The position numbers and the translations under genes are program-made. From a virus, in the IMG/VR virus record IMGVR_UViG_3300020464_000002, positions 1,326-65,325 of that record: DNA of 64,000 nucleotides. One strand, 5' to 3'. Below, piece after piece: positions 1,866 through 63,729 of the stretch; the first letter of the stretch is position 1; each line of letters begins with the position of its first letter. The notes beneath the pieces were generated by a model, which did not search any database, was not told the DNA's origin, and worked only from the letters and a program-made list of their open reading frames with translations.

Positions 1866-1939
1866 GGAACACCCCTAAAAGCCCCGCCTAATAACTTGTC
1901 AAAATAGCCTTATCACTCATTCATTGATAAGGCTTTTTT
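1866..1939 (+). promoter_or_regulatory. late promoter-leader module 1
   Basis: GGAACACCCCTAAA at 1866-1879; TGtCAAAAT with hexamer at 1900-1905 (offset 34); inverted repeat AGCCTTATCA 1906-1915 / TGATAAGGCT 1925-1934; T5; ATG 1940. Confidence 0.6.
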
Positions 1940-2560
1940 ATGAAAACAAACACCCCAAGCCTAGCGGCTTACCGCAAGCAATACCAAACGATGAAGTCGT
2001 TAGGTGCTGCTATGTTGGCGTGTAACGCTGTATTGGTTATTGATGGTTACGAAAACCTATACATGCTGATACAAAACTTCCAGCGCCCAATTTGCAGCCA
2101 CCATGACCCCGCTGATGTGGACTTAGCACGCGGCTTACAGGCGCACGCCGCTGGTACGCGTAAAACCAACTTTGAGAGCCAATGGACGTTTATTGAAACC
2201 GAAAGCGGCGTTATTTCACAGTTTGCAGACGACCTAGTAAACATTCATGACGGCATTATCCCGCTGGCACGCGTTTATGACGGTTTTGTTGATGACGGCG
2301 ATAACATCAAAGGCTTGCGTGAATATGAGCTGATCGATTCCGCGATCACGTTTGCTGATGGCGGCGGTGAGATCGATTCAGCCAGCCGCAGTCAGATCTT
2401 ACAAGTACAAGCAAGTTGCCGTTACAACTTCTTTGGTAATGACAGCAAGCTAGGCTCATCAAGCACAGACGTTTTCGCTAACACCTTAAACAGCGCACTA
2501 GGCGCATTTGGCGGCCTAACCGCTACATCCAGTTCAGACAACGTTACCATTTTTGGTTAA
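1940..2560 (+). CDS. virion protein, possible tail-tube-fold (T4 gp19/gp54-like); paralog of 6282..6881
   Basis: Starts 34 nt after the late -10. Shares WTFIETESG / MTFIETSTG and overall size with 6282..6881. Function unverified. Confidence 0.4.
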   Translation: MKTNTPSLAAYRKQYQTMKSLGAAMLACNAVLVIDGYENLYMLIQNFQRPICSHHDPADVDLARGLQAHAAGTRKTNFESQWTFIETESGVISQFADDLVNIHDGIIPLARVYDGFVDDGDNIKGLREYELIDSAITFADGGGEIDSASRSQILQVQASCRYNFFGNDSKLGSSSTDVFANTLNSALGAFGGLTATSSSDNVTIFG

Positions 2561-2569
2561 GGCGGCCTT

Positions 2570-3064
2570 GTGAGCGTTAATGATACAGACGTGAATCACG
2601 TCATTGGCACGATCGAGGATGCAGCCAATGATTTGTATGAGGAGCTTTTAACGACTGGTTATTCTTTATTGCTCAGCGATGTGGTTAAGGTTTTTATTAT
2701 CAATACCAAAAAATACGCGGGGTGGTCAGGCGAGTTGCAGCATTGCCCCAAGAGCGATGAATCATGCGTAAAACCGTTGTTGGAGATCGATCAAAACACG
2801 GTTTTGGGGGTGGATGACTGGGTGATTGTTGAGCCAGTTATCCGCGCTCATTGCGATCTCGTTCAGGCGCGGCGTATGGAGGGGGCGCAGAATTTAGGCG
2901 TTCAACCCGCTGGCATGTCGTCAAGCGAGGCACGCCAGCTATACGATGATGCGGTAAGGACAATGCAAAAAGAGGCGTTTCAATTCCAGCCGTTTAGTAT
3001 TGAGATACCTAAAGACGACCCGCGCTACCCTGAGACTAGCCCTTGGCTGGTATGGCAATCATAA
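2570..3064 (+). CDS. hypothetical virion-module protein
   Basis: GTG start 9 nt after the upstream stop, with AAGG upstream. Tightly packed in the late operon. Confidence 0.6.
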   Translation: MSVNDTDVNHVIGTIEDAANDLYEELLTTGYSLLLSDVVKVFIINTKKYAGWSGELQHCPKSDESCVKPLLEIDQNTVLGVDDWVIVEPVIRAHCDLVQARRMEGAQNLGVQPAGMSSSEARQLYDDAVRTMQKEAFQFQPFSIEIPKDDPRYPETSPWLVWQS

Positions 3065-3125
3065 GACATGGCCGCCGATCTACTGGCGGCCACACCCAAA
3101 TAACCATTACTTTTGAGACAAACGC

Positions 3126-4019
3126 GTGAATATTCAGCTTGAAGATGGTAGTCAAATTGGCGGCGGTAATCTAATCAGCGCAATCTATCGAACCGACCTT
3201 GTTCCAGTGCCAGTGACATTAGAGCTGGTGGTAAAGGCTGATGATAGATTGCGTGATTTATTTACCATTGGTCGCAAGATGACCACACCAAAAGGCGTGC
3301 CGCTGGTAATTGTTAAGTCGCAAGTGATCAATGAGCAGTCAATCAAGGCTGGCCGCCGTGTTGCGGCTATTCATGTGATCGCTATTATCGGTGGCTGTGA
3401 GGCACTGCTAGGCGTGACCAATAAGGCGGTGCATTTAGAGAACACCAATTTTAATGAAGTTTACCGCGCACTTGGCGCAAAGGTGAGAATCCAGCGTGAC
3501 GTTAAACTTGCCAGCTTTACTTGCTTAAAAGGGCAGTTACCAACCGCATCGATTGCATTGGCATTGCAGCGTGAGGCCGCCGTGGTATGCAACACCGAAA
3601 GCGGCTTATCTATCATACGCCTAAATGAGCTGATGGGCGGTGATGCGATCATGTTTGATAAAACCGCCGTCCAGTGGATCGACAATCCAAACGCCGTCAG
3701 GCATAGCAATGTCAACTACTTATCGATCGATGACAATGGATCGGACATTTTAGGCACGGCAAGGGCTGAGCGCTCAATACAGTATTATCCCCGCGCTGAT
3801 ACCCGCGAATTACAGAACCTACGCCGCATTTTAATCACTAAAGCCACGATCACCCGCCAGCTGGATGAGCGCTTGGACGCTGGCGCGATCATATCGGTTG
3901 ATGATCAATCATTAGTCACGCTCACTGGTGTTCACAAGTACGAAACAGGCGCTATGGGTGGTCGCTCAGTGGCCGCAACTAAGGCATGGCTGGCACAGGT
4001 CGAGGACGCTAAACAATGA
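3126..4019 (+). CDS. hypothetical baseplate-module protein (possible hub, gpD/Mu gp44-like)
   Basis: GTG start. The stop overlaps the start of the spike gene (ATGA), which supports a baseplate role. The hub call is only positional. Confidence 0.35.
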   Translation: MNIQLEDGSQIGGGNLISAIYRTDLVPVPVTLELVVKADDRLRDLFTIGRKMTTPKGVPLVIVKSQVINEQSIKAGRRVAAIHVIAIIGGCEALLGVTNKAVHLENTNFNEVYRALGAKVRIQRDVKLASFTCLKGQLPTASIALALQREAAVVCNTESGLSIIRLNELMGGDAIMFDKTAVQWIDNPNAVRHSNVNYLSIDDNGSDILGTARAERSIQYYPRADTRELQNLRRILITKATITRQLDERLDAGAIISVDDQSLVTLTGVHKYETGAMGGRSVAATKAWLAQVEDAKQ

Positions 4020-4672
4020 GCTTTATATCCCCTTATATGCACCCCGCCAAGCTGATGAGCTATGACAAAGTTAATCGTACCGCAAAAGTCGCTATTGCTG
4101 GCTTAACGGACGGCATAGCAGAGGGTATCACCGCTATGCTGGCGTACCCCATAGGTGATGACGACTTAGACACGGAGCGCGAATTATTGGCCGGCGCTGA
4201 CGTATGGGTATTTTTTGAGCAAGGCGATGTATCAATGCCAGTGGTGGCTTTTTACCGCCGTCATGGTCAAGGCCGCGCAACCGTGGACGTGCGCCGCATA
4301 CGCCAAGAGAATATCGAGATATTGGCGCGTACCAGCATAACGCTAAGCGCTAAAGACTTTATCGATTTAAAAGCCAGCAAAATAAACCTTGATGCCGACA
4401 CTGTGACCATCAACGCCACCGAGCTAAATATCAATGCTGAGACAAACGCAAAAGGCGATATCAACCAAATTGGTGATTACTTTATGACAGGCGATCAGCT
4501 GATCAATGGCGGCCAAACGATCAACGGCAACAGCGTGTCATACGGCAATCAGACCATTAACGGTAGCGTGCACTCAACGGTTGATATAACCGCTGGCAAT
4601 ATTTCAGTGAGATACCACTATCACAGCGGCGTAAAAGAAGGCGGTAGTGATACCAGCCAATCCCAAAATTAA
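4016..4672 (+). CDS. baseplate central spike, P2 gpV-like
   Basis: GADVWVFFEQGDVSMPVVAFY matches the gpV OB-fold motif. The C-terminal half is repetitive (INATELNINAETNAKGDINQIG..QTINGNSVSYGNQTINGS), like a beta-helical needle. Confidence 0.6.
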   Translation: MSFISPYMHPAKLMSYDKVNRTAKVAIAGLTDGIAEGITAMLAYPIGDDDLDTERELLAGADVWVFFEQGDVSMPVVAFYRRHGQGRATVDVRRIRQENIEILARTSITLSAKDFIDLKASKINLDADTVTINATELNINAETNAKGDINQIGDYFMTGDQLINGGQTINGNSVSYGNQTINGSVHSTVDITAGNISVRYHYHSGVKEGGSDTSQSQN

Positions 4673-6886: not shown

Positions 6887-6962
6887 GGAACACCCCTAAA
6901 CAGCACCCCTTAAAACTTGTCAGAATAACCGTATCTTATTAATTATTCATAGGTACGGCGAA
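6887..6962 (+). promoter_or_regulatory. late promoter-leader module 2
   Basis: GGAACACCCCTAAA at 6887-6900; TGtCAGAAT with hexamer at 6921-6926 (offset 34); imperfect inverted repeat CCGTATCT 6929-6936 / AGGTACGG 6951-6958; ATG 6963. Confidence 0.6.
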
Positions 6963-9900
6963 ATGGCATACACCAAACAGAATAAAGCGCACAGCAATCA
7001 CTATATCACCAAGCCTGACGGCTCAACCGCCAGTCGGTACAGCCGTTATGAGACTGGACGTATCACAGGCCGCTATCGTGAAATACCAGCCGTTCTAGCG
7101 GACAGCACAGGCTTTGACAGCCTAGGCTTTGATAGCAGCGTTGGCAGCGTTGATGACCGCTGGCACGTTGTTAACGTTTTTGACTCAGTAAATACTTATA
7201 TTGATAGCATTGCCGTTGGCGGCGCGATGGACGGCAACCACGCCTTGCAAATCGCCAAGTCACAGCTAGACAGCTTGGGCGGCACTACTTGCCAGCTAAT
7301 CACCAACAACGCCATGCAGTTTGACGGTATGGATCACGACCACGCATGGTCGATTGATGCCATTAATAAGCTGATGGATAACCCCTCGCAAAACAAGAGC
7401 TACCTACCAGTAATCACCGCGCCTGAATTGGTCGTTGAGGCTGAGCGCGTCACGTTTGATAGCGTGCAGTGGGATAGTAACAACAACCTAATCAGCCATG
7501 GCGGTAAAGACAGCCGCTTGTATCTTGATCTTACCCGCGCTGATACCCGAAACGAGCTTGTCACTGAGTTTGACTTGGCAGACGCGTTATTTGACATGGA
7601 CGCACAGGAAGCGGGTTTTGATGCGTTGATGGACACAAAAAGTCGCTTACCTCTACTAAAAGATCGTTTATTTAAAGCGCTTAGCCAAGCAGGTGATGAA
7701 AGTCTATCTGTAACCAATGTAACGCAAACCAAAGAATTTAAGCGCCAAGGTGTGATTAATATCGCGTTTGTCTTTGATTTGTCAGACGGCCAAAAGCTGT
7801 CTATTTGGTTCCACAAGCCGCTAGAGTCCTCATCCAAACTACTACCAAGCGACTACATGGTGTCGTGGAAGTGGATGTTGAATAAGCGCGATGTAACCGC
7901 CGCATTATCACCAAAACACGGCGATAACGTGCAGTTGCCAGCGCTGGCACGCCGTATCATGCGTGTGGCCGCTAAGAACTCTAAACGCTTTAAAGCCGCG
8001 CAAGCACGCAAGGCCAAGGTTGAGCAAGAGTTATTGGATGCAGAACAAGCAATCGAAGATAAAAAAGCCACGATCAGTCAATTAGACGCTGATATTGCTG
8101 ATATTAACGCTAAAATTGATGCTGCTATGAAAGCGCCCGACTCAGACACAGTTAATGAGTCAGGCTTGCAAGCTGACGAGCCAGCGGACGCGCCAGTAAG
8201 TACGACAGCGGCGACCGCCATCCCCGTAAGAGAAGCGCTTGAATACGTCAAAGCGAATATCTTTGAAGGCAAAGATGATCAAGTCTTAATGTATGTCACC
8301 GATAGAAGTACCGGTGAGATCAAAGAAACTAAGCTAGTGAAGGCGTCGAGCAAATCAGCGCAAACGCGATGGTCAAACAATTTTGTCAATGATGATACGA
8401 CTGGCTCAGTCTATAACCAGTCAATCCCTAAAACCAATAGCAACGCCGCCACCTTACTTGAAGACCTAGGGTACAAGATTAATTATGCCGATCCTGAAGG
8501 TTTCATTGATGATCAATTCAAAGTTGGTGACGCTTACCGCTTTATTGATCCTAACGACGCTAATGACACGGGCAGTGTCTTAGAGTTTAAGAGCTGGGAG
8601 GGTATCAACAGAGGTAACGACGAGCCGATACTATCATTTTCATCGTTTAGCGGCGCAAGTGGCAAGAGCTTTAAGCTTAGCGAGATGCAAAAACTTGTTG
8701 CTGACGGTGCGGCGGTACTGGTAACAGACTCAGAAGCGCAAGAAGCCAAGGATTTTGAAACCGAGCAGCCGGTATCGGTGTATGTGAACAGTAAAGGCCG
8801 TGAATTGGTAACAGTGACGTACAGTCATGGTCAATACAATCTTAAAGGCAGTGGCTTTATGAATGGCGCTGACGATGAAGCGGGCGTGTTAAAGATTTTG
8901 CGATCTATAAGAAAAGACAATAAATCCATGAAGTTGAAAGAGGGTAAAGAATTTTTCCCCGCGGGCGATGACGGTAAAGAATATCCGCCGCTTGAGTATG
9001 ACGCCGAAAGCAAAACAGTTACCGCTTACATGAATAGTAAGAAAAAAGATAGCTGGACGGCCATACCTAAAGACGATGGCGGCTTTACCGTGTACGCCGA
9101 TAACGCCCAAACTCGCGCCTACAGAACCAGCGCACCGAAAATGTTTGATAACAGCGAAGATCTCATTGCCACTTACCCCGCGTTTAGAGGTATCGACGCA
9201 TTATTGGCCAAGCATAGCACTAGCAGCGATGACGTAGACTACGCGGAGATCGATGAAAGCGAGTACCCTGAATTATTCCTAGATCGCAACAGCGATAAGC
9301 TAAATATTTTAGGTATCGGCGATGACAATATTCATGTAGGCAACCAAAACCACGGCGAGGACAGCTATAGCGATCTATACCATATCGACACCGGTATCTT
9401 TAAAGATATGACACTAAACTTTACGGATGCCGTGTGTAAGGTAGTCGATGCTTCCATCGATATAGGTGCTGATGCGGTTGTCGGTGACTATACAGCAACA
9501 GCTTATCAAGATTCAATGTTCGATGACCTTAACAGCAAATCCAACCCCACTTACGGTATCACCGTGCAGATCTCAAAAGATGGTGCTTACTTGCGCGCCG
9601 AAGTCGATGCTTATGGTGAAGCTAAGATCTTAAAAGGCATGAGTGGCCAAGACGTTGTTGCAACCGTAAAACACGTATTTACCGATAATACCGGCGAATA
9701 CAAAACAGCGATTGAAAACGCATTAGACGCACAGGCGGATCAAGATATGGACGATAAAAAAGCAGATGACGATATGAGTACAACAGACACGCATGATGTA
9801 CCTAACACAGCTGAGACAGCGCCAGCAGCCAATATTAGCAACTCAGGCATTCCCGACATAACCAATGCAGATAAAAGCAATGCCTTGGAATATGGAGAAA

Positions 9901-11147
9901 AGCTACTTGATTTTGCAAGGGCTAGCTGGGTTCCGTCTAAATCCTATGATGATATTGATGAGTGGACTAGCGAAGAACAGACGGCGGCGTACAGAAAAGA
10001 GAAAGAGTTAGTAGAAGCAGAGTTTAAAGAAGTTATCCGTCTTTTTGGTGTTCTAAAGCAGTACCGAGCCTATAAAAAGGATCAACAAGAGATTCAAGAA
10101 ATGGCAAATCTAGCAAACAGAGCTTACCTAAGCGGCTGGCGTGGCAATCCGAGTAAAGGAAGTGAGATGAATCGGTTTTTCTCAGCTGTTGACAGAAGAA
10201 AACAAATGGAAATTTACAACGAAACAAAGGAGTGGAATGCTGTTAGTGAAGATCATGTATTCCCACCAGTCGAAAAGATAGGCGATGACGAGTACAGAGC
10301 TTATCGAGATAGCGATAAAAAAGATCATTGGACAGCCAAACACGTTAGAAGTGGAGATTGGGAGGTTGTTATTGATACTGAGCGATCAAGAAATATAAAA
10401 GGCGTTAGTACATTAAGACTTTTTAACAGCATTGATGACATTATCAATGAATACCCAGCATTCAAGGGCGTTAAAGAAATTATTGCAGGCAATGATAAAA
10501 CTAAAAAAGATGACACGCTGGATGATCCCGATGCGTTATTTGCTGCATTTTTTAATGAGTTTTACGATGAGGTTATGAATAGTCAGCGTCCAAAAATACA
10601 AGGTCTGCGATTGTCAGCCAATGCGGTAGATGGAACCAATATATCTTTTGAGTCTGGAAATGGTAAGTCTTACAAAATCTTAGGATCAGAGTACAACCCT
10701 TCAGGTAAAAACGTAAACCTTAATTTGATTGAAGTTAAAGCCAACGGCGCAGGTTACACCTCTCAAAACTCTATGATATCGATTGTTGCTAGTACCAAAG
10801 TGACAAAAAATTCAGACTGGATGGAGTCATTGCGATCTAAGAAAGAGTGGCTCATATCAGAAGTTTTTGACGTACTAGACATAGATTACCAAGAAAAAAA
10901 CAAAGCCGACACAGTAGCGGAGCCAGCCACCAGCGCCGCCGCTAAGCGTATTAACGAGATCGAGCAGCAAATGAGCGCCGCTGATTTTGACCCGATGACC
11001 GTTGATACTGACGAGCTAATCGACTTGGTAGATCAGGTCGAGGGCGATGTGGAGCTTAGCGCCAAGCTAGACTATCTCAGCACGACCCTGCAGCAAAAAA
11101 TAGTTGCCGTCAGCATGAAAGCCCTTACCGATATGGCTGGCGCGTAA
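6963..11147 (+). CDS. giant virion-associated protein (1394 aa), polyvalent-protein-like
   Basis: Uninterrupted 4.2-kb ORF after a late promoter. Contains a coiled-coil segment and an internal duplicated module ending YPAFRG / YPAFKG. No catalytic motif recognised. Confidence 0.55.
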   Translation: MAYTKQNKAHSNHYITKPDGSTASRYSRYETGRITGRYREIPAVLADSTGFDSLGFDSSVGSVDDRWHVVNVFDSVNTYIDSIAVGGAMDGNHALQIAKSQLDSLGGTTCQLITNNAMQFDGMDHDHAWSIDAINKLMDNPSQNKSYLPVITAPELVVEAERVTFDSVQWDSNNNLISHGGKDSRLYLDLTRADTRNELVTEFDLADALFDMDAQEAGFDALMDTKSRLPLLKDRLFKALSQAGDESLSVTNVTQTKEFKRQGVINIAFVFDLSDGQKLSIWFHKPLESSSKLLPSDYMVSWKWMLNKRDVTAALSPKHGDNVQLPALARRIMRVAAKNSKRFKAAQARKAKVEQELLDAEQAIEDKKATISQLDADIADINAKIDAAMKAPDSDTVNESGLQADEPADAPVSTTAATAIPVREALEYVKANIFEGKDDQVLMYVTDRSTGEIKETKLVKASSKSAQTRWSNNFVNDDTTGSVYNQSIPKTNSNAATLLEDLGYKINYADPEGFIDDQFKVGDAYRFIDPNDANDTGSVLEFKSWEGINRGNDEPILSFSSFSGASGKSFKLSEMQKLVADGAAVLVTDSEAQEAKDFETEQPVSVYVNSKGRELVTVTYSHGQYNLKGSGFMNGADDEAGVLKILRSIRKDNKSMKLKEGKEFFPAGDDGKEYPPLEYDAESKTVTAYMNSKKKDSWTAIPKDDGGFTVYADNAQTRAYRTSAPKMFDNSEDLIATYPAFRGIDALLAKHSTSSDDVDYAEIDESEYPELFLDRNSDKLNILGIGDDNIHVGNQNHGEDSYSDLYHIDTGIFKDMTLNFTDAVCKVVDASIDIGADAVVGDYTATAYQDSMFDDLNSKSNPTYGITVQISKDGAYLRAEVDAYGEAKILKGMSGQDVVATVKHVFTDNTGEYKTAIENALDAQADQDMDDKKADDDMSTTDTHDVPNTAETAPAANISNSGIPDITNADKSNALEYGEKLLDFARASWVPSKSYDDIDEWTSEEQTAAYRKEKELVEAEFKEVIRLFGVLKQYRAYKKDQQEIQEMANLANRAYLSGWRGNPSKGSEMNRFFSAVDRRKQMEIYNETKEWNAVSEDHVFPPVEKIGDDEYRAYRDSDKKDHWTAKHVRSGDWEVVIDTERSRNIKGVSTLRLFNSIDDIINEYPAFKGVKEIIAGNDKTKKDDTLDDPDALFAAFFNEFYDEVMNSQRPKIQGLRLSANAVDGTNISFESGNGKSYKILGSEYNPSGKNVNLNLIEVKANGAGYTSQNSMISIVASTKVTKNSDWMESLRSKKEWLISEVFDVLDIDYQEKNKADTVAEPATSAAAKRINEIEQQMSAADFDPMTVDTDELIDLVDQVEGDVELSAKLDYLSTTLQQKIVAVSMKALTDMAGA

Positions 11148-12012: not shown

Positions 12013-12750
12013 ATGACCACAACACTAACCATTCAATTATTAAATGAAAGCCTGAGCTTGCCTGATCTCAGTATTGGCGATGCCATAGACATTGCACAAA
12101 TACCGTCAGGCTTTAATGAAAAACGCCTAAGCGCCTTAATTGGCCATTTAAGCGGCGATGCAGCGTTGGCAGGTCGATTAACCGCGCAAGAGCGCTATTA
12201 CATACTGCTAAACCATCAAGCAACCACGAGCCACAAGTACAACGCTGATGACGCTGGCGCGAACGATGAATATATGATCGAAACTATCCAATCAGACGTA
12301 CCAAATGAGGTGCAAGTGGGTGAATTGATTATCAACCATTTACGCGGCGCTCACGTTGTTGTTTTAGAGGGGATTTGTGAAAACGTGGCCGAATGGCTTA
12401 TGGGGCAAATGGCGTGCCAGCTTAGCGGAAATCTAGCCAGCATTATTGGTGGCGATGACGTTGTATGGGAGCCAGTACCAGCAACCATGACCGACAGCGA
12501 GATCAACGCCGTTATTCAAGAGCGTTTTCGCTTCATTAGCGGCCTATCTGCCACCAGCGCTTTTAACGATCTTGTCGATGCCTATAGTAACGGCGCACAC
12601 CAGCTGACGCATTTTGTCAAATTAGGAAGCGACAATAAAGGCTTAACCGTTATTAAGTCAGGAGGTGACGGCAATATGGAGCCGTCACGATTTCACACCC
12701 TTGACCATTTATCAGGGGCAGCCGCAAGACTTGCAACATGCCTTGCTTGA
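12013..12750 (+). CDS. hypothetical protein
   Basis: The ATG at 12013, 2 nt after the upstream stop, is preferred over the listed 11974 start, which would overlap the previous gene. Confidence 0.6.
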   Translation: MTTTLTIQLLNESLSLPDLSIGDAIDIAQIPSGFNEKRLSALIGHLSGDAALAGRLTAQERYYILLNHQATTSHKYNADDAGANDEYMIETIQSDVPNEVQVGELIINHLRGAHVVVLEGICENVAEWLMGQMACQLSGNLASIIGGDDVVWEPVPATMTDSEINAVIQERFRFISGLSATSAFNDLVDAYSNGAHQLTHFVKLGSDNKGLTVIKSGGDGNMEPSRFHTLDHLSGAAARLATCLA

Positions 12751-12949
12751 AGACGCATTTACGATGGTGGAACACGGCAAAATGAGCTTGCCCGAAGCCC
12801 TTAAAATAGGATTGTCTTTTATAAAGCTGTATCGAGACTCACCAAGTTTTGAGCGCGTATCAAAAACCATTGAAAACGAGCGTATTTACAAGTCAGGCGT
12901 TATAGATCGTTTAAACGCAATCATACAGGTAAGCCAAGCGCGGCGTTAA
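12665..12949 (+). CDS. possible small ORF, start uncertain (12665 GTG, 12763 or 12784 ATG)
   Basis: Overlaps the previous gene in the +1 frame and contains a late-promoter-like motif. Coding status is doubtful. Confidence 0.25.
   Translation: MTAIWSRHDFTPLTIYQGQPQDLQHALLEDAFTMVEHGKMSLPEALKIGLSFIKLYRDSPSFERVSKTIENERIYKSGVIDRLNAIIQVSQARR
12769..12807 (+). promoter_or_regulatory. late-promoter-like motif upstream of lysis cassette (weaker copy)
   Basis: GGAACACGGCAAAA at 12769-12782; TAAAAT at 12802-12807 (offset 33). It lies inside a doubtful ORF, 158 nt before the holin-like gene. Confidence 0.35.
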
Positions 12950-16954: not shown

Positions 16955-16996
16955 GTTTAAAAAACGGCAGCCTAGCCAGCGTTTAGCGCTAACCAA

Positions 16997-17021
16997 CCCC
17001 GCCAAAAATGGCGGGGTTTTT
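16997..17021 (+). terminator. intrinsic terminator
   Basis: CCCCGCC / GGCGGGG stem, 6-nt loop, T5. Confidence 0.7.
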
Positions 17022-17025
17022 CATT

Positions 17026-17101
17026 GGAACAGTGTAAAAGTTGCTAGCCGTTTACTTGTCATAATTGGTTATTGCTTTTTATAACCAATCGGACAGCATT
17101 T
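17026..17101 (+). promoter_or_regulatory. late promoter-leader module 4
   Basis: GGAACAGTGTAAAA at 17026-17039; TGtCATAAT with hexamer at 17060-17065 (offset 34); inverted repeat ATTGGTTAT 17064-17072 / ATAACCAAT 17081-17089; ATG 17102. Confidence 0.55.
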
Positions 17102-24369: not shown

Positions 24370-24379
24370 GCTGTCTAAT

Positions 24380-24409
24380 GAACGCAAATTAACGCAAATG
24401 AACGCAAGG
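24380..24409 (+). repeat. three tandem 10-bp repeats (G/T)AACGCAA(A/G)(T/G)
   Basis: GAACGCAAAT, TAACGCAAAT, GAACGCAAGG, immediately before the SD of 24417. Confidence 0.8.
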
Positions 24410-39956: not shown

Positions 39957-40655
39957 ATGGCTAAACGATCAGGATATACAAAACGTGATATTAAAAACAT
40001 CAATGTTACGGTAGGGCTAAATTTAGCAGCAGCGCGGCGTAATGCTGGCATGTCTCAAACTGATGTGATGAAAGCTGTATGGGGTGTATCTAATAACCGA
40101 AATCGTATTAGTGAGATTGAGAACGGCAAAAAAGACTTAACGCTTATCGATCTTCTTATTTTTCAAGATCTTTACGGTCAATCATTGGATTATATATGCG
40201 GTCTATCGACAGAACCCGAAGTTGATATGCTGGCGGGAACCGTTAACCATGTGGTTAACCAGTCGCACGCATTGATTGAAATGCTGACAGGTAGCATGGC
40301 TGACGTGATCGTCAATCATGTTAAATCGATCAGTAAAAATGATCATGAGGCGTTGCTGGACGCGTCAAAGCGTCTATGTAATATCGTTAGGAATGATCAC
40401 AAAGACGACAGTGCCAGCGTTGAAGCTGTGGTGGCCGCCAGTACCGTAATGCGCGTTGTTAGATCGATAGAGGTCAAGCAAGCAAGGCAAGCACAAGCCA
40501 TTGATACGCAGATGACACAAATCGCCGAGCGTGTTGATCGTGAAGACCGTCACCGCTTGCTAAAAGATCGTGACCGTCACTATCAGTACAGCATACCTTT
40601 ACCCGCGCCAATGATGTTGGACGGCGCAAACGTGGTGGGGGTTAGCTGTGAGTGA
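39957..40655 (+). CDS. XRE-family HTH regulator (233 aa), candidate middle/late regulator
   Basis: LNLAAARRNAGMSQTDVMKAV..ISEIENGKKDLTLIDL HTH. GGGGA SD at the 39957 ATG. First gene after the hairpin. Confidence 0.6.
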   Translation: MAKRSGYTKRDIKNINVTVGLNLAAARRNAGMSQTDVMKAVWGVSNNRNRISEIENGKKDLTLIDLLIFQDLYGQSLDYICGLSTEPEVDMLAGTVNHVVNQSHALIEMLTGSMADVIVNHVKSISKNDHEALLDASKRLCNIVRNDHKDDSASVEAVVAASTVMRVVRSIEVKQARQAQAIDTQMTQIAERVDREDRHRLLKDRDRHYQYSIPLPAPMMLDGANVVGVSCE

Positions 40656-41592
40656 TCAATCCTTAAAAGACGAGATATGGGCGGCGGCTAAGTTAATATG
40701 GGAGAACACACCCAAAATCACCGACCGAGAATTACTGGATCAACTACAAACGACCTACGGAGAAAGTGCACCAAAGTCGAGCGGTTCGGTAAGCAAAAGG
40801 CGAAAAAAGGAAGCATGGACGAAGCAAAGCCTTGTTAAATCGCCTAAAAATAGCCTAAAAATAGAGGGAGAGGACGCAGGAAGCAAGCAACCTAGGAAGC
40901 AGGAAGCGCAAAATAATACTTTGATTCCTTCAAAAAATAATAAAGCACAAAACGGCTATTTAGAGAGGGAAGCGGAAGCAGCAGGAAGCAAGATTGGTGA
41001 AATAACCGACAATGTGGTGATCGATGCCAAAGGTCGCGCCGCCATTATTAATAGGACTAGACGAAGGTTTAGTAATTTAGGTGAATTGTTTGATCAAGCG
41101 CTTGCCATAACGCTAAGTATTCCTGAGCTGGCAGATGAGGTAGAGAGAATAGAGCAAGAGGCGCTGGCAGGTGAATACGGCGCTAACTTTGAAATAGGTG
41201 AGAACGACAAAAAAGAACCGATAGCCGAGGTCGAGGCCGCCGCGCAACGATTGCAACGAGCCATGGTGTTAAGCAAGTCTTTAACCGAGACTACAACCAG
41301 CTTGTCTATGGCGCTTAAAACCATATCAGAAGTTGAAATGCCGTTATGCGGGATCACAGCGGACGACTTCAAACAGTCAGACCAAGACCGCCGTTTGGAT
41401 GCCTTGGCCGCGCTGGGCGATATCAATAAGAAAGAGCGTGAGGCACGCGAACAGTTGCAGCCTGAGTTATATGAGCGCTTGAACCGCATTAAGGCGGCAG
41501 AGGCAAGCGCTGATTTTGGCCTTGATGATGAGGGTAATGAGGGAAACCCCGATGATGATATCGATGATATCGATTATACGAGCGTTGACTAG
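40648..41592 (+). CDS. hypothetical protein (HTH-like N-terminus, acidic C-terminus)
   Basis: GTG start overlapping the upstream gene by 8 nt. No catalytic motif. Confidence 0.5.
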   Translation: MSDQSLKDEIWAAAKLIWENTPKITDRELLDQLQTTYGESAPKSSGSVSKRRKKEAWTKQSLVKSPKNSLKIEGEDAGSKQPRKQEAQNNTLIPSKNNKAQNGYLEREAEAAGSKIGEITDNVVIDAKGRAAIINRTRRRFSNLGELFDQALAITLSIPELADEVERIEQEALAGEYGANFEIGENDKKEPIAEVEAAAQRLQRAMVLSKSLTETTTSLSMALKTISEVEMPLCGITADDFKQSDQDRRLDALAALGDINKKEREAREQLQPELYERLNRIKAAEASADFGLDDEGNEGNPDDDIDDIDYTSVD

Positions 41593-41761: not shown

Positions 41762-41773
41762 GGGAGCGTGTAA

Positions 41774-41846
41774 GGAACACCAAGGCCGCCGTATCACTTA
41801 GCAATGCCATAATCTAATGACTGAATTATCAAATAAGGCATAGATC
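41774..41846 (+). promoter_or_regulatory. late promoter-leader module 5
   Basis: GGAACACC at 41774; TGcCATAAT with hexamer at 41808-41813 (offset 34); ATG 41847. Confidence 0.5.
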
Positions 41847-44858: not shown

Positions 44859-44935
44859 GGAACACCCCACCAGCCAGCCCCCGCAAGCCCCTTAAACTAG
44901 ACGTATTCACCACGTTTATTTAAGGGGCATTTTTT
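44859..44935 (+). promoter_or_regulatory. late promoter-leader module 6
   Basis: GGAACACCCC at 44859; TAAACT at 44893-44898 (offset 34); inverted repeat CCCCTTAAA 44888-44896 / TTTAAGGGG 44919-44927; T5; ATG 44936. Confidence 0.6.
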
Positions 44936-49417: not shown

Positions 49418-49492
49418 GGAACACGTCTAATCATGCCAGCTGGCACGCGGTAAAATTATCCATACTCATTAATTGAATAGCGAATAATAATT
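49418..49492 (+). promoter_or_regulatory. late promoter-leader module 7
   Basis: GGAACACGTCTAA at 49418; TAAAAT at 49451-49456 (offset 33); ATG 49493. Confidence 0.5.
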
Positions 49493-53925: not shown

Positions 53926-53949
53926 AAGCCGCCTAATAAGCGGCTTTTT
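53926..53949 (+). terminator. intrinsic terminator
   Basis: AAGCCGC / GCGGCTT stem, then T5. Confidence 0.7.
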
Positions 53950-53955: not shown

Positions 53956-54053
53956 GGAACACCCCTAAAACGCCCATTTGAAACGCTATTAACATTAATC
54001 CTATCAGTTTAGATGTTCTATCACTATCCAACCGACCATATAGGATTAACCCC
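53956..54053 (+). promoter_or_regulatory. late promoter-leader module 8
   Basis: GGAACACCCCTAAAA at 53956; TAACAT at 53990-53995 (offset 34); inverted repeat TTAATCCTAT 53995-54004 / ATAGGATTAA 54040-54049; ATG 54054. Confidence 0.6.
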
Positions 54054-56734: not shown

Positions 56735-57823
56735 ATGATCAACAGCAAAACACTAGGATCAGCCGCCGGTATTCAATACCAAGGCGTGATCGACAACTCA
56801 GAGGGTACGAATCTACCATCACTGGCTAATGGCGTGGTCATTGGCAAGTTTAAGCGCGGGCGCATGGATAAGCCGTTTAAGGTGACTGCTAGCAACTACA
56901 AGGCATTGCTTGGCCGCGATCCATCTAACCCTAGCTACTTAGCCGTAGAGGACGCCTTTAAGCGCGGCGTTAGCGAGGTTAGTATTTTGCGCATTGGTGG
57001 CACTGGCGGCGCAGCAAAGCCCATCCCAGTTAACACAGGAACCGTTATTTTTAGCGTTGAGAGCTACGAGAACCCATCTAGTGAATATCCAGTATATATT
57101 TATATTGAAAATCCAGTTGGCGACTGGACGCTAACCGAGGCGGGCGAGTTAATCGCTGATTCAACAGGGTTTGCCGCTGACGGCGTGGATTTGGATATCT
57201 ATGACGGCGGCGCTGATATTCTCTTTACGGTTGTTACGCCCGACAAGCGATCTTTTGAGCTTGATGTAACCGCCGAATATGCCGATATTTCTTATGATGG
57301 ACAGCATAACTTTCATAGCCCAAACAGCGATGTGGCTACCTTAGATCCGCTAGGCGAGGTTGTTATCAGTCAATTTTCGTCAAAGATACCTAGTTTTTCA
57401 ACAGCATTTTTCAACACGCTTTTAACCGTGCCTGAACATATACCGCCTGAATTGGTCGATATCAGTTATTTATTTTTCGAAGCCTCGCGTTTTAACCAAA
57501 ACATAAGTATGTGGGATGTAAGTCACGTACTCAATATGAATAGCACTTTTTATAACGCTAAGATTTTTAACCAAGATCTATCTAATTGGTGTACGCCTAA
57601 TCTACCGTTCGGTGGTGTAGATTTTGATACTGGCGCCGATGCGTGGTTATTGCCTAGACCAGTTTGGGGTACTTGTCCACGCAGAGAGGGCGGCGCGACT
57701 GATTATGTTTTTGATCCATTGCTACCAAGCCAGCCGCCGAGCACAGATAGCAGTTATATCCGCATAGCACCAGTAACGCCGATAGACGGCTGGCATGATG
57801 CGTCAAATAACATGACAACATAA
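56735..57823 (+). CDS. sheath-N-terminal-domain paralog A fused to BspA/DUF285-type repeats
   Basis: Residues 1-90 are conserved in 59082 and 60331 and resemble the T4 gp18 N-terminus (GKFKRGRMDKPFKVT..LLGRDP..FKRGVSEVSILRIG). The C-terminus has FNQNISMWDVSHVLNMNSTFYNAKIFNQDLSNW. Confidence 0.5.
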   Translation: MINSKTLGSAAGIQYQGVIDNSEGTNLPSLANGVVIGKFKRGRMDKPFKVTASNYKALLGRDPSNPSYLAVEDAFKRGVSEVSILRIGGTGGAAKPIPVNTGTVIFSVESYENPSSEYPVYIYIENPVGDWTLTEAGELIADSTGFAADGVDLDIYDGGADILFTVVTPDKRSFELDVTAEYADISYDGQHNFHSPNSDVATLDPLGEVVISQFSSKIPSFSTAFFNTLLTVPEHIPPELVDISYLFFEASRFNQNISMWDVSHVLNMNSTFYNAKIFNQDLSNWCTPNLPFGGVDFDTGADAWLLPRPVWGTCPRREGGATDYVFDPLLPSQPPSTDSSYIRIAPVTPIDGWHDASNNMTT

Positions 57824-59009: not shown

Positions 59010-59081
59010 GGAACACCCTAAAACCCTAACCTCGACAAAGCCTATACTGAGTCATAAACCACTCAGTATAGGCATTTTATT
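59010..59081 (+). promoter_or_regulatory. late promoter-leader module 9
   Basis: GGAACACCCTAAAA at 59010; TATACT at 59043-59048 (offset 33); arms GCCTATACTGAG 59040-59051 / CTCAGTATAGGC 59062-59073; ATTTTATT; ATG 59082. Confidence 0.6.
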
Positions 59082-59429
59082 ATGATCGAGAGTAAAACAC
59101 TAGGTAGCGCCGCTGGCGTGCAGTATCAGGGCGTTATCGACAAGACAGAAACAAACAGCTTGCCGTCATTGGCCAATGGCGTGGTCATTGGCAAGTTTAA
59201 GCGCGGCCGTATGGACAAGCCGTTTAAGGTGACTGCCGTCAATTATCAGGCATTGCTAGGGCGTGATCCGATGAATCCAAGCTACTTAGCAGTAGAGGAT
59301 GCCTTTAGGCGCGGTATTAGCGAGGTGAGCGTATTGCGCGTTGGCCAAACGGGCGGCGCGTCAGTTGTGGAGGTCGAAAAATACAGCTATCTTGATTTAT
59401 CGCTACCCTTGCCGCCAGCCGTCGCTTAA
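59082..59429 (+). CDS. sheath-N-terminal-domain paralog B (short, 115 aa)
   Basis: The first 90 aa are highly similar to the first 90 aa of 56735 and 60331. Only a 25-aa tail follows. Confidence 0.5.
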   Translation: MIESKTLGSAAGVQYQGVIDKTETNSLPSLANGVVIGKFKRGRMDKPFKVTAVNYQALLGRDPMNPSYLAVEDAFRRGISEVSVLRVGQTGGASVVEVEKYSYLDLSLPLPPAVA

Positions 59430-60258: not shown

Positions 60259-60330
60259 GGAACACTGCTAAAGCCACAAGCCAAGCCAAGCCTATACTGA
60301 GCTATTACTACTCAGTATAGGCTTTTTATT
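60259..60330 (+). promoter_or_regulatory. late promoter-leader module 10
   Basis: GGAACACTGCTAAA at 60259; TATACT at 60293-60298 (offset 34); arms at 60290-60301 / 60311-60322; T5ATT; ATG 60331. Confidence 0.6.
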
Positions 60331-61143
60331 ATGATCAACAGCAAAACACTAGGATCGGCCGCCGGTATTCAATACCAAGGCGTTATCGATAAGACAGAAA
60401 CAAACAGCTTACCGTTATTGGCCAATGGTGTGATCATTGGCCGGTTTAAGCGTGGGCGTATGGATAAACCATTTAAAGTGACTGCTAATAACTACCAATC
60501 GTTGCTAGGCCGCGATCCGTCTAATCCTAGCTACTTAGCGGTTGAGGACGCGTTTAAGCGTGGTATCAGCGAGGTTAGTATTTTGCGCGTTGGCGGGCGG
60601 GCAGCTGGCGATGGTTTAGGCGATGGTTTAGGCGATGGAGGATTGGGCGGCGGCAGTGGTTGGAGTGATATTGATTTCGTTGGATCGGTGGGCGGTATGT
60701 CGATTGGGTACGAGATGGGTTATCTTTATATATTTCAATACCAAATTAATGATGAAACGCCGGTTATTGTAGAAGTACCCGCCAACCGGACTGAATTGGT
60801 GGGTACTAACCTTGGGATGCTTGTCGTTGACTTCACCCCCAATGTTTTTAAAGATTCAGCAAGCGGTGATCCGTATGAGTATTGGATGGAATGGGAGGTT
60901 CAAGAAAACTCTAATTGGATTACTCTAAAAGGTCTAAGATCCGGATATACCGCGCCGCAAATGGATTCAATGCTGGAAAATAATATACTTAGAATAACAG
61001 AGGTTTCGGAAGAGGAGCGCTACTCTATATCCATTAACAATCCTAATCTAACAACCTATGATATAGGGCTAAATAATAACACTGCTGAAATGGGTGTGAG
61101 GTCAGAAATTAGGGTTGTAGCGCCGGATCTAGGTGCTGTGTAA
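60331..61143 (+). CDS. sheath-N-terminal-domain paralog C with GDGL-repeat linker and distinct C-domain
   Basis: Conserved N-terminal 88 aa, then GDGLGDGLGDGGLGGG (12-bp DNA repeat). YIFQYQINDETPVIV resembles YLFSYQINDRPIV of 57833. Confidence 0.5.
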   Translation: MINSKTLGSAAGIQYQGVIDKTETNSLPLLANGVIIGRFKRGRMDKPFKVTANNYQSLLGRDPSNPSYLAVEDAFKRGISEVSILRVGGRAAGDGLGDGLGDGGLGGGSGWSDIDFVGSVGGMSIGYEMGYLYIFQYQINDETPVIVEVPANRTELVGTNLGMLVVDFTPNVFKDSASGDPYEYWMEWEVQENSNWITLKGLRSGYTAPQMDSMLENNILRITEVSEEERYSISINNPNLTTYDIGLNNNTAEMGVRSEIRVVAPDLGAV

Positions 61144-61153: not shown

Positions 61154-61226
61154 GGAACACCCCTAAAGGCCTAAAGCAAACCTTGCCTATACTGAGTTGA
61201 TACCAACACAGTATAGGCATTTTATT
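61154..61226 (+). promoter_or_regulatory. late promoter-leader module 11
   Basis: GGAACACCCCTAAA at 61154; TATACT at 61188-61193 (offset 34); arms GCCTATACTGAG 61185-61196 / CACAGTATAGGC 61207-61218 (1 mismatch); ATG 61227. Confidence 0.6.
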
Positions 61227-62615
61227 ATGAGCGCTCAGATCCTTTATTTAAGTATTCTAGCGTCTTCCATGGCACTGACGGAATCGCCCGATCCCGCAGC
61301 GCTGGCAAGCGTAGAGCTTGTCACGGAATACGCTTTTGATTCAAACGTTGTGGCAAAAGTCATGGTGGTTGATCAAAAAACCTTTACCACTGCCGCCGAC
61401 CCCTTAAACAACCTTGTTTTTAAGATCAGCTTTAACGACAAGATCGATGGCAGTACGCTAACAGAATTACAAGGCCGTTTATACACTGGCGGCGGCGTTG
61501 AGGCGCTAGAAGAAAACCATGCCGATGACTTTAGTTACGTCACAGGTAAGCTAGACTTTCACGGCGCATTAGATAGCCAGTATGACTTTTTCGAGTCCGT
61601 CACGACCAGTTATAGCGCAAGCAGTGCAGCAGCGATCAAAACAGCGCTTGAAACCGTGGGCGCATTAAACGAGCTTGGCGCTTATCGCACCAAACAAGTT
61701 GAATTGGCCGTACCAGCTAGCACCGTAACCGACCTGACACCAAAAGAGCTTAAAAACGCGTTGTTAGACATGCGCGATCGTCCACGCTACCTAGTCACTT
61801 GTGACGTGGCCAGCTTACCCCATATTGAAGCGCTGGCAGAGGTGATGGGTAAGATCAACTGTCACGTATTGCTTGATATTGGCAATATCACCGACTGGCA
61901 ATCAGCCGTAGCGTTAACTGAGACATTGAGCATTAACGATCACCGTTTTTGGGTGTTTTGGAACCCTAATAAGTCACGTCCAAGCAATGCAACAACCGTG
62001 CTGGCGCGTAAAAAATGGCGACCGTGTGTTGGTGATTACCTCGCTCAATTATTGTTGCGCAACGCGGCCACCAATGCCGCTGGCATCCCGCCAATCTATC
62101 GACCAATCGCAGGTTACGACTTCCCAGTGGCGTTCCGCGATATGGAAAAAATAGGCGGTTTAACGCTGGATGAAGAAGCACAAAACGCGCTTGCCAGTGC
62201 TGGCGTGAACGTGGTTATTAATGAGCGTTTTGAGGGCGGCGATCGCTGGATCTATGGCGATGCGTTGACCCAGTATGACAGCAAGACCAGCGCCTTGCGC
62301 CTGATCAACTCATCCGAGATTGAGACTTATACCGCCAATGTTGTGATCGGCATTGCTAAAAAGCACTTGCTAAAAGGTATGAGTAGTTATGTCAAAGATG
62401 CGACCAATGAGTGTGAGCGCTTTTTGGATTCATGCGTTGTTGATGATAGTGGTAAGGGCTTGTTGGTGCAGTCGTCAGAGCTTGGCGGTCGTTATTATGC
62501 GCTAAGTATTACGCCACGCGCTGACGATCCATTCAGTAAAGTAGATATCAAGTTTAGCCGCCGTCCGCAAGGTTGTGCACGCCAAGCATTTTTAGAAACC
62601 ACAGTAACGAAGTAA
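61227..62615 (+). CDS. tail sheath core protein (gp18-like middle and C-terminal domains, N-terminal segment absent)
   Basis: KKWRPCVGDYLAQ..PIAGYDFPV..LASAGVNVVINERFEGGDRWIYGDALTQ..LRLINSSEIE aligns by eye with T4 gp18 NRWVPLAADIAG..SPAGYNRG..AINPVTGTGGDGYVLYGDKTAT..DRINVRRLFN. The ATG at 61227 is chosen because 61197 lies in the leader hairpin. Confidence 0.6.
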   Translation: MSAQILYLSILASSMALTESPDPAALASVELVTEYAFDSNVVAKVMVVDQKTFTTAADPLNNLVFKISFNDKIDGSTLTELQGRLYTGGGVEALEENHADDFSYVTGKLDFHGALDSQYDFFESVTTSYSASSAAAIKTALETVGALNELGAYRTKQVELAVPASTVTDLTPKELKNALLDMRDRPRYLVTCDVASLPHIEALAEVMGKINCHVLLDIGNITDWQSAVALTETLSINDHRFWVFWNPNKSRPSNATTVLARKKWRPCVGDYLAQLLLRNAATNAAGIPPIYRPIAGYDFPVAFRDMEKIGGLTLDEEAQNALASAGVNVVINERFEGGDRWIYGDALTQYDSKTSALRLINSSEIETYTANVVIGIAKKHLLKGMSSYVKDATNECERFLDSCVVDDSGKGLLVQSSELGGRYYALSITPRADDPFSKVDIKFSRRPQGCARQAFLETTVTK

Positions 62616-62696
62616 TAACCCCACTGATCGCTATCACGCCAGCGTTAGCGATCAGCACCAACCACAGTGTAAATAACCATTTTTCAAGGAAAAGTT

Positions 62697-63596
62697 ATGT
62701 TAAACCCAATGATGAACCAACGCCGCCGTGATCGTAACCATGAGCGCCAACAAGCCCAGTTTGATGCAATGAATCCAAAAGATGCCGCCGACAAGTTGGG
62801 CGCTGATCGAATCAGCGAACGTATGGCGATTGCGGCCACCAGTCAGATGCGTATTCAGGCGCTATCGGTTGTCTTTATGCTTGCCGCCACGCTGTCAGAA
62901 GCCGATTATGACGATGAAGATATCCTACCAAGCGAAGTGCTAGACGCGCTGATGCTTGAAGCGTTTGTTGATGATGACGATGAAGATATCGACGGTATCG
63001 ATGAAGACGTTAAAGTCGTATTTTCAGCCCACGTAGCAGACGCGCTATCAACCCTTGGCGTTGAAGACTCAGTAATTGATGATCTTTTTGATGATGATGT
63101 TGAAGTAGCAGATGCAGCAGCCCTTGCCGCCGCCGAAACGGTACTAGAAAACATGCCCGATGATGGTGATGATCTTGATGTGTTTGTGGCCGCATTTGCT
63201 TATAGCGATGAAGACGTGGACGCTGCCGAAGAATCAGGCGCGTTTGATAGTATTGATGATCAAGAACCGCAGTTTGATGCCGCTCGCAAGAAATTGCGCG
63301 TTGGCAAAAAGACCGTGAAAAAGGTCAACGGTAAAACGCTTACCTACAAAGCGGTTAAGGCTATTCGTAACGGTAAAAAAGTCACGATCAATAAGCGCAT
63401 TGGGGGCAAACCGCTACTCAAAGCTGGCCAAAAAGCCGCGCTTAAAAAAGCACGCCGTAAAGCGGGTACTGGTTCCGCGATCAAGAAGCAAATGAAGTCA
63501 TTTAGTAAAGGTATGCGCATGAACCTTTACAAAGGCAATAAAAACCGCCTAAAAGCCTTACAAAAAGCAGGGGCAGCGCGTTATTTTAACTCTTAA
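62697..63596 (+). CDS. bipartite acidic/basic virion protein
   Basis: D/E-rich centre and K/R-rich C-terminal 100 aa. Followed by a terminator. Confidence 0.5.
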   Translation: MLNPMMNQRRRDRNHERQQAQFDAMNPKDAADKLGADRISERMAIAATSQMRIQALSVVFMLAATLSEADYDDEDILPSEVLDALMLEAFVDDDDEDIDGIDEDVKVVFSAHVADALSTLGVEDSVIDDLFDDDVEVADAAALAAAETVLENMPDDGDDLDVFVAAFAYSDEDVDAAEESGAFDSIDDQEPQFDAARKKLRVGKKTVKKVNGKTLTYKAVKAIRNGKKVTINKRIGGKPLLKAGQKAALKKARRKAGTGSAIKKQMKSFSKGMRMNLYKGNKNRLKALQKAGAARYFNS

Positions 63597-63615
63597 TAAC
63601 GACTAGCCAGCCATA

Positions 63616-63647
63616 AAAAACCGCCTCAACATGGGGCGGTTTTTTTA
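63616..63647 (+). terminator. intrinsic terminator
   Basis: ACCGCCTC / GGGGCGGT stem, then T8. Confidence 0.7.
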
Positions 63648-63649
63648 TT

Positions 63650-63729
63650 GGAACACCGCCAATGACCCGCCAAGCGATACACCTACAATAGATGGATAAA
63701 CATTAACATTCATTTTATACAGGTGGCAC
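63650..63729 (+). promoter_or_regulatory. late promoter-leader module 12
   Basis: GGAACACCGCC at 63650; TACAAT at 63684-63689 (offset 34); weak inverted repeat CACCT 63680-63684 / AGGTG 63721-63725; ATG 63730. Confidence 0.55.

Follow-up and report, generated by a model that had tools for sequence, protein, structure and literature searches.

An apparently undescribed class of predicted late promoters, with a GGAAC box in place of a −35 element, in a temperate myovirus of Psychrobacter

Positive control of late genes is, to our knowledge, universal in the well-studied phages, and a handful of its mechanisms are understood (Q, Lpa, Ogr/Delta, Mor/C, MotA/AsiA, gp55/gp33 and RinA). Considered here is a set of twelve predicted late promoters, each with a GGAAC-containing box a fixed distance ahead of a −10 hexamer, in a 64,000-nucleotide stretch of viral DNA (positions 1,326 to 65,325 of IMG/VR record IMGVR_UViG_3300020464_000002; the whole stretch is termed ‘the window’ below and coordinates are counted from its first nucleotide). 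The window takes in nearly all of the genome (~65.7 kb) of a temperate Psychrobacter myovirus that encodes an integrase and is distantly P1/D6-like in its structural genes. The closest functional analogue of the set is provided by the Lpa-dependent late promoters of P1.

The late promoters of P1 number 11, and each combines a −10 with a 9-bp inverted repeat to which Lpa binds (PMC10695390). The two phages are alike in being temperate myoviruses with related structural, Dar and packaging genes, in having about a dozen dispersed late promoters (11 in P1 and 12 in the Psychrobacter phage) that head separate late operons, and in combining a −10 hexamer and the lack of a functional −35 with a conserved box for a phage-encoded activator, which for the Psychrobacter phage is a predicted one. 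The P1 box, reportedly centred near −22, between the −10 and −35 positions (a placement ascribed to Lehnherr et al. in 1992), is an inverted repeat, whereas that of the Psychrobacter phage is asymmetric, with its GGAAC core at about −46 to −42 and with −35 to −13 unconserved; no conserved element or dyad lies between its box and hexamer. The Escherichia coli P1-like phage D6 has an Lpa homologue and lacks the GGAAC module, whereas neither the window nor its relative Acinetobacter phage vB_AbaM_ABMM1 (ABMM1) has a detectable Lpa (tblastn with D6 Lpa, no match better than E = 0.2). With no Lpa, no inverted repeat and a box at about −44, the set is not a member of the P1 class. A search for a late-promoter box in D6 by counting 9-bp inverted repeats gave no clear motif, so that the comparison with P1 rests on the literature.

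In mechanistic type the module resembles the promoters served by lambda cII (PRE and PI), PhoB (pho boxes), T4 MotA/AsiA (middle promoters) and class II CRP, where the −10 is good, the −35 is weak or missing, and a sequence-specific site for the activator lies across or next to the −35 region at a constant helical phase. The MotA box is centred near −30, the cII site is TTGC-N6-TTGC, the PhoB site consists of direct repeats and the CRP site is a dyad; a GGAAC core at −44 is used by none of them. P2 Ogr, Mu C and Mu Mor are likewise small phage activators of several late promoters without a good −35, but they act at sites of dyad symmetry (TGT-N12-ACA near −55 for Ogr, dyads at −30 to −55 for C and Mor). 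Open reading frames (ORFs) of the window, namely the large and early-region ones together with a sample of the small late ones, were scanned against Pfam and PHROGs; no homologue of cII-, PhoB-, MotA- or CRP-type activators was detected in them, no zinc-finger Ogr-like or Mor/C-like protein was matched, and the sigma and Q families were equally without a match. Compared with lambda cII, PhoB and MotA/AsiA, the GGAAC module has a different box at a different position and probably a different protein.

Box, spacing and hexamer

GGAACA occurs 14 times on the plus strand of the window and three times on the minus strand. A model's reading of the letters alone (the sequence-only reading) had picked out twelve of the plus-strand copies as a stereotyped late promoter, and all twelve are present with the hexamers exactly as it gave them (Table 1). 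In each a [TC]AnnnT hexamer begins 33 nucleotides (nt) past the first G (12769, 49418 and 59010, sites being named here by that G) or 34 nt past it (the other nine), so that GGAAC and hexamer are 28–29 bp apart and the distance from box to hexamer is constant within 1 bp. The two further plus-strand copies, at 25950 and 35810, are within genes and have no hexamer. In 300 dinucleotide-preserving shuffles the composite of box and hexamer was met 1.26 times on average and 5 times at most, versus 12 observed, and it is absent from the minus strand of the window; GGAACAC, for which the shuffles gave 3.4 ± 1.7 per strand (maximum 8), is found 12 times on the plus strand and once on the minus strand. 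The pattern is therefore not equally frequent in shuffled sequence. The five GGAACACC(C)CTAAA copies noticed earlier are there (GGAACACCCCTAAA in four, GGAACACCCTAAAA in one), as are the three copies with the extended −10-like ACTTGTCAnAAT, at 1866, 6887 and 17026; a TGn extension of the hexamer is found in four copies of the window.

All twelve precede structural, packaging, lysis or Dar anti-restriction genes and share their orientation, and the early region (26.5–41.6 kb, with CI, Cro and replication genes) has no copy, in keeping with the earlier claim that all copies precede late genes and none early ones. Measured from the end of the hexamer, the ATG of a long ORF follows at 32–40 nt in ten copies and at 58 nt at 53956. 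One particular needed amendment: the copy at 12769 is within a 94-aa ORF (12665–12949), which has a good Shine-Dalgarno (SD) sequence and is homologous to ABMM1 sequence, rather than between genes, and the next gene, the start of the lysis cassette, is 141 nt downstream of it.

Information content was computed for 33 sites drawn from five phages, and conservation proved to be confined to (T)GGAAC, the hexamer and an A at hexamer start +12, which is 7 nt past the hexamer and at the predicted +1. The most informative positions of the hexamer are A2 and T6, at 1.65 bits each; positions 4 and 5 have ~1.0 bit and position 3 has 0.2 bits, a profile that is the sigma70 −10 pattern (nAnAAT). Over the same sites the 19–20 nt spacer between box and hexamer holds no information, the −35 position shows no conservation save for the tail of the box specific to Psychrobacter phages, and the box itself is asymmetric and without a second half-site. 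A scan with the sigma70 consensus paired one of the twelve window hexamers, that of 63650, with a −35 (a weak ATGACC) and left the other 11 without a partner. A hidden sigma70 or extracytoplasmic function (ECF) −10 within the spacer, which would put the start site upstream of the hairpin described below, was considered and rejected, the spacer being devoid of information; also rejected was the notion of a repeat element, for the copies have just box and hexamer in common, save for one duplication of gene plus promoter (59010/60259).

GGAAC is the textbook −35 motif of ECF sigma factors, and the box might accordingly be the −35 of promoters that an ECF-type sigma, or some other alternative one, recognises, whether of the phage or of its host. 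The pentamer is identical to the canonical ECF −35 core, it is invariant, and it stands in one orientation at a constant distance from a downstream element. However, ECF promoters have a spacer of 16–17 bp to a short −10 of CGTC or TCNAA type, whereas here 28–29 bp separate GGAAC from the sole conserved downstream element, at offset 33/34; offsets 21–27, where an ECF −10 would be, are without conservation, and the element that is conserved is of sigma70 −10 type, TGn extensions included. The spacing and the sigma70-type −10 together exclude an ordinary ECF promoter. In addition, Sigma70_r2 and r4 had no Pfam match in ~30 window ORFs and there was none in the PHROGs scans, with the provisos that some small ORFs and the host genome lay outside the scan and that very divergent sigmas can escape Pfam, and no sigma-type gene is common to the window and ABMM1. 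An alternative sigma is, on this showing, very improbable.

Comparison with other phages bears on which parts of the module matter. Among Psychrobacter relatives of 62–96% sheath identity, orthologous genes are again preceded by the box and, at the 33/34-nt offset, the hexamer, while the 19–20 nt spacer diverges freely, as illustrated by the sheath promoters ggcctaaagcaaaccttgc, gccatcaccaaaactagcc and caatactgttagcccaact. (L001, L003 and so on are the labels of related loci that were compared with the window.) A variant clade, L006/L026, has GGAACAGCAC replacing GGAACACCCC. ABMM1 has TGGAAC(Y)-N28/29-(C/T/A)AnAAT ahead of at least 11 of its late genes, and more distant loci, of 37–52% GC, carry the same arrangement of box, spacing and hexamer. 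The sequence-only reading had the box spanning roughly −46 to −33; across genera just its (T)GGAAC is common, not the 14-bp box, and the ACACCCCTAAA / CCCCTAAA extension is specific to Psychrobacter phages. In D6, which served as negative control, there is neither enrichment nor strand bias, with 5 sites on the plus strand and 5 on the minus strand, all apparently within coding sequence.

The enrichment, the strand bias, the lack of a −35 partner and the conservation all sustain the proposal of a dedicated late-promoter class without a −35, and a search of the literature on GGAAC or TGGAAC late promoters and on Psychrobacter or ABMM1 promoters found nothing relevant. Going by sequence comparison, then, the GGAAC module appears to be a real, strongly conserved and apparently undescribed class of late promoter. 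It is clear-cut and recognisable by sequence, so offering a handle for annotating late transcription units in Psychrobacter and Acinetobacter prophages, and as the lineage includes a cultivable phage of Acinetobacter baumannii, ABMM1, it is directly testable.

A predicted activator and its candidate genes

It is quite likely that the twelve sites are sigma70-type, −10-only late promoters that depend on a phage activator bound around −46 to −42. The (T)GGAAC core would there stand in for the −35, one helical turn beyond the usual −35 position, and host RNA polymerase with its primary sigma would presumably be unable to use these promoters alone. An activator made at the end of the early-right operon would bind the box in one orientation and recruit polymerase to the −10 or stabilise it there, as class II or −35-replacing activators do. 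It would thereby turn on the genes for tail, head, packaging, lysis and Dar-type anti-restriction, in about a dozen distinct late transcription units. A class II activator and an unusual sigma had been put forward together in the sequence-only reading; the activator-type reading is the one that found support, while the unusual sigma did not, with no sigma domain in the ORFs scanned and a spacing wrong for ECF.

Which protein might it be? Three candidate genes had been proposed, 39957–40655, 38758–39399 and 40648–41592, and they have fared differently. The first and third are conserved in other phages that have the motif; the product of 38758–39399 has no family matches and no ABMM1 counterpart, and this gene was set aside. 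The two conserved genes form a cassette that closes the early-right operon ~180 bp ahead of the promoter at 41774, the second of them being the last sizeable gene ahead of the first late promoter. The non-structural genes common to the window and ABMM1 are those for a CI-like repressor, the integrase, the XRE-type helix-turn-helix (HTH) protein of 39957–40655 (gp68 in ABMM1) and the N-terminal domain of 40648–41592 (gp69). In every relative examined the cassette genes are adjacent, including loci with an HTH protein just 26–40% identical, and those loci carry the promoter module. Synteny and co-occurrence thus single out this uncharacterised two-gene cassette as the best candidate for the late activator, with a chance that we would place somewhat short of even. 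AlphaFold2 models with Foldseek, and PDB profile searches, gave no sigma-, Q-, MotA- or Mor-like fold for the candidate regulators. If activator and promoters behave as envisaged, they could furnish a compact, tightly phage-dependent promoter tool for Moraxellaceae.

Two other features are close by. Between the cassette and the first late promoter is a 47-aa hydrophobic ORF (41628–41771, MGKILEVIDKIIGVVIEQSPRWLAIVFYMMVLSMLITWVGSMFSYYY) with a strong AAGGAGG SD. On the minus strand at 39823–39925, a good sigma70-like promoter (TTGCAA-16-TATAAT, 39925–39898) points leftward into a strong terminator (stem 39858–39831 plus a run of T), from which an RNA of ~65 nt, divergent from the candidate activator gene and with a tRNA T-arm-like GTTCAAATCC inside it, is predicted; it could be a regulatory small RNA or the remnant of a tRNA gene.

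Hairpins over the hexamer

An inverted repeat, which the sequence-only reading had not remarked, directly follows the hexamer or overlaps it, and the 3′ arm of the repeat carries the SD (AAGG, TAGG or AAGGGG) and ends 4–10 nt before the ATG. At 44859, 59010, 60259 and 61154 the hexamer is within the stem (−21 to −22.5 kcal/mol), and at 1866, 6887, 17026 and 53956 the stem begins 0–3 nt past it. The mean fold z-score versus shuffles for 108 non-redundant modules from all loci is −2.45; folds of −8 kcal/mol or stronger are seen in 70 of the 108, and in 97% of these 70 the fold starts no more than 3 nt after the hexamer. The pairing covaries: among orthologues of the tail-tube promoter a UA pair is changed to CG in 4/10 and a GC pair to AU in 2/10, and L032 pairs a variant hexamer, TACACT, with GTGTA in the 3′ arm, the corresponding sequences of other orthologues being TAAACT and GTTTA. 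Position, length and sequence of the hairpin vary among modules.

Since the predicted start is 7 nt past the hexamer and thus within the 5′ arm, transcripts from these promoters could not form the hairpin; only read-through transcripts could. This suggests that the hairpin is a terminator, an SD-occluding insulator against upstream transcription, or both. A transcript begun at the predicted start would lack the 5′ arm, escape termination and have its ribosome-binding site exposed, and one reading through from upstream would fold and be terminated or translationally silenced, with the outcome that each late gene block would be insulated from its neighbours and strictly dependent on its own activator-dependent promoter. 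A run of T follows the hairpin in five of the twelve window copies (1866, 44859, 59010, 60259 and 61154), ahead of which there is no separate terminator. At 17026, 53956 and 63650 a strong separate terminator lies just upstream of the box and the hairpins have no such run, an absence that fits a terminator or insulator role for the hairpin.

A −10-like element followed by a terminator-like hairpin also brings lambda Q to mind. The module could be conceived as a compressed Q-like antitermination unit in which transcription starts upstream, the hexamer is a sigma-dependent pause and a factor at the GGAAC box permits read-through of hairpin and T-run; five of the copies do have the run of T, the hexamer can be within the stem, and the candidate regulator genes are placed as Q is in lambdoid phages. 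This reading is disfavoured because no upstream promoter could launch the transcript: there is no −35/−10 pair upstream, and neither the spacer nor the sequence ahead of the box has a conserved element. Moreover the other seven copies have no T-run, the ORFs scanned yielded no Q-family match in Pfam or PHROGs, and there are twelve dispersed units versus the single PR′ of Q systems. It is most improbable.

Still less probable is that the repeats have no promoter role and are punctuation at operon boundaries, A-/T-tract terminators accompanied by a conserved box that binds RNA or protein for processing or packaging. Hairpins between A-rich (CAAAAT) and T-rich tracts do look like bidirectional terminators and the modules are at boundaries of gene blocks. 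However, many of the hexamers are not A-tracts (TATACT, TACAAT, CATAAT, TAACAT, GATAAT) and yet keep A2 and T6, and the distance from box to hexamer is fixed within 1 bp while the hairpin varies in position, length and sequence. Furthermore some late blocks, those behind the strong terminators at 16995–17018, 53926–53946 and 63617–63646, would be left with no promoter.

Returning to activator-dependent promoters, the fullest picture would be of a new late-transcription system in a widespread lineage of Moraxellaceae temperate myoviruses, in which a new two-protein activator on an asymmetric pentamer redirects RNA polymerase with sigma70 and each promoter is nested in a terminator/anti-SD hairpin that acts as insulator. 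All of these parts together are offered tentatively, and we regard the whole as rather less probable than otherwise. The nesting of a −10 and start site in a covarying terminator/anti-SD hairpin was not found described in the literature, and if functional it would be an economical insulation of adjacent operons.

Several points weigh against the scheme. XRE-HTH proteins usually bind dyad-symmetric sites as dimers, and the asymmetric box is unlike the dyad expected for a typical one. The distant loci were found via the HTH protein, making the test of co-occurrence between cassette and module one-sided. The AlphaFold2 models of both cassette proteins, which predict the structural parts listed for them in Table 1, are of moderate confidence (pLDDT ~70), and Foldseek against the PDB and PDB-sequence profile searches gave a generic XRE HTH for one protein and unspecific coiled-coil matches or none for the other; there being no specific fold match, synteny and co-occurrence are what the activator assignment rests on. 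The copy at 12769 is within coding sequence, and protein constraint could explain its conservation. The hairpins at 41774 and 49418 are weak and, with a clear T-run in just 5/12, a terminator role cannot be universal. Lastly, A-rich hexamers such as CAAAAT could in part be the A-tract of a bidirectional terminator.

Individual sites, gene content and neighbouring features

The twelve promoters, with the hairpins, terminators and candidate genes that accompany them, are collected in Table 1.

Table 1. Predicted late promoters and associated features (window coordinates; L numbers are related loci)
Feature	Position	Strand	Description	Neighbouring gene, relatives
Late promoter 1	1866..1905	+	Box GGAACACCCCTAAA 1866–1879; TGn-extended hexamer CAAAAT 1900–1905; predicted +1 A1912	Tail-tube gene at 1940; orthologous copies in L001, L003, L006–L008, L010–L013
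Hairpin of promoter 1	1906..1939	+	AGCCTTATCA/TGATAAGGCT plus T6, up to ATG; 5′ arm begins 1 nt past hexamer; SD (AAGG) in 3′ arm	Compensatory pairs in orthologues
Late promoter 2	6887..6926	+	Box GGAACACCCCTAAA; hexamer CAGAAT 6921–6926; hairpin 6929–6958, no T-run	1394-aa gene at 6963; kept in L001, L021, L024, L025
Late promoter 3	12769..12807	+	Box GGAACACGGCAAAA; hexamer TAAAAT 12802–12807	Upstream of lysis cassette (endolysin 13877–14458); kept in L021, L024, L025
Intrinsic terminator	16995..17018	+	10-bp GC-rich stem plus T-run, −23.8 kcal/mol	Adjoins promoter 4 on upstream side
Late promoter 4	17026..17065	+	Box GGAACAGTGTAAAA; TGn-extended hexamer CATAAT 17060–17065; hairpin TTGGTTAT/ATAACCAA 17066–17090, directly after hexamer, no T-run	DarB-like 2228-aa gene, ATG 17102
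Candidate late activator A	39957..40655	+	232 aa; N-terminal XRE-type HTH (HTH_3) and long helical hairpin	31% identity to ABMM1 gp68
Candidate late activator B (partner)	40648..41592	+	314 aa; conserved N-terminal three-helix domain, disordered basic linker, coiled coils, acidic C-terminal tail	
Late promoter 5	41774..41813	+	Box GGAACACCAAGGCC; TGn-extended hexamer CATAAT 41808–41813; just a weak hairpin after hexamer	787-aa tail lysin / tape-measure-like gene at 41847; first late promoter past early-right operon
Late promoter 6	44859..44898	+	Box GGAACACCCCACCA; hexamer TAAACT 44893–44898	309-aa gene at 44936, similar to D6 gene annotated P1 pro-like
Hairpin of promoter 6	44887..44935	+	GCCCCTTAAAC.../...TTTAAGGGGC plus T6, −22.5 kcal/mol; hexamer within 5′ arm; 3′ arm is SD (AAGGGG)	Pairing kept in orthologues
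Late promoter 7	49418..49456	+	Box GGAACACGTCTAAT; hexamer TAAAAT 49451–49456	Tail-fibre gene at 49493; orthologues in L001, L034–L047
Intrinsic terminator	53926..53946	+		Adjoins promoter 8 on upstream side
Late promoter 8	53956..53995	+	Box GGAACACCCCTAAA; hexamer TAACAT 53990–53995; long-range hairpin TAATCCTAT/ATAGGATTA 53995–54049	604-aa gene at 54054, homologue of ABMM1 ‘head vertex protein’; kept in L001, L005, L006, L012
Late promoter 9	59010..59048	+	Box GGAACACCCTAAAA; hexamer TATACT 59043–59048 within 13-bp hairpin 59040–59073 (top terminator-like match), then ATTTTATT	ATG at 59082
Late promoter 10	60259..60298	+	Box GGAACACTGCTAAA; hexamer TATACT 60293–60298 within hairpin 60288–60324, then TTTATT	ATG at 60331; paralogue of promoter 9, with an N-terminal domain common to their downstream genes
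Late promoter 11	61154..61193	+	Box GGAACACCCCTAAA; hexamer TATACT 61188–61193 within hairpin 61184–61219, then TTTTATT	Tail-sheath ATG at 61227; kept in L001–L009, L012–L015 with diverged spacer
Intrinsic terminator	63617..63646	+	AAAAAACCGCCTC...GGGGCGGTTTTTTT, −18.9 kcal/mol	Adjoins promoter 12 on upstream side
Late promoter 12	63650..63689	+	Box GGAACACCGCCAAT; hexamer TACAAT 63684–63689	Gene at 63730 (MKLSDITKKT...); 13 distinct orthologous versions

The window is a permuted, nearly complete copy of the genome, with ~1.3–1.7 kb absent between its end and its start (from synteny with L001; ends 1–46 and 63730–64000), and one further late promoter could sit in the part outside it. A contig of 65,667 bp encodes a protein identical to one from the regulator region of the window. 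The close relatives are prophages or contigs of Psychrobacter; among annotated phages those nearest to the window are ABMM1 (portal 44% identical), Xanthomonas phage Rb1 and, distantly, D6, with which the window has homologues of portal, TerL, DarA/DarB, pro and baseplate genes in common. Megablast of 19 kb of the window versus 50,697 phage records gave no match. PHROG and Pfam matches cover baseplate, tail tube, portal, sheath, tail fibre and TerL for structure and packaging, endolysin and integrase for lysis and integration, a CI/Cro/CII switch for regulation, and RecT, an exonuclease and an O-like replication protein for recombination and replication. No RNA genes were found by Rfam and tRNA scans.

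Anti-restriction is represented by a DarB-like protein of 2228 aa, and the N-terminal part of the 1394-aa protein matches a PHROG described as ‘released from the phage upon host infection’ (D6 DarA is annotated so). Two very large late genes, that for the 1394-aa protein (6963–11147) and that for the DarB-like methyltransferase/helicase (17102–23788), each have a GGAAC promoter of their own, and the second is also behind a strong terminator; the Dar genes of P1 are likewise expressed late.

In a late operon a HIT-domain (histidine triad) protein is encoded at 45875–46294, with the P1 pro-like gene on one side and the terminase genes on the other. Three genes ahead of the sheath gene (61227–62615), namely 56735–57823, 59082–59429 and 60331–61143, have a common N-terminal domain of ~87 aa; it matches the 92-aa gp13 of ABMM1 (‘tail sheath protein’) as well as sheath-related PHROGs, and the genes at 59082 and 60331 have been duplicated along with promoter and hairpin.

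Short direct repeats with a 10-bp phase (24377–24407 and 24870–25023) are on either side of a 138-aa ORF (24417–24833) and reach into the start of the integrase gene (25003–26238). They comprise three copies of AATGAACGCAA and six of (C/T)AACGAACA(T/C), the latter in two clusters, and are probably arm-type integrase or accessory binding sites of a predicted attP.

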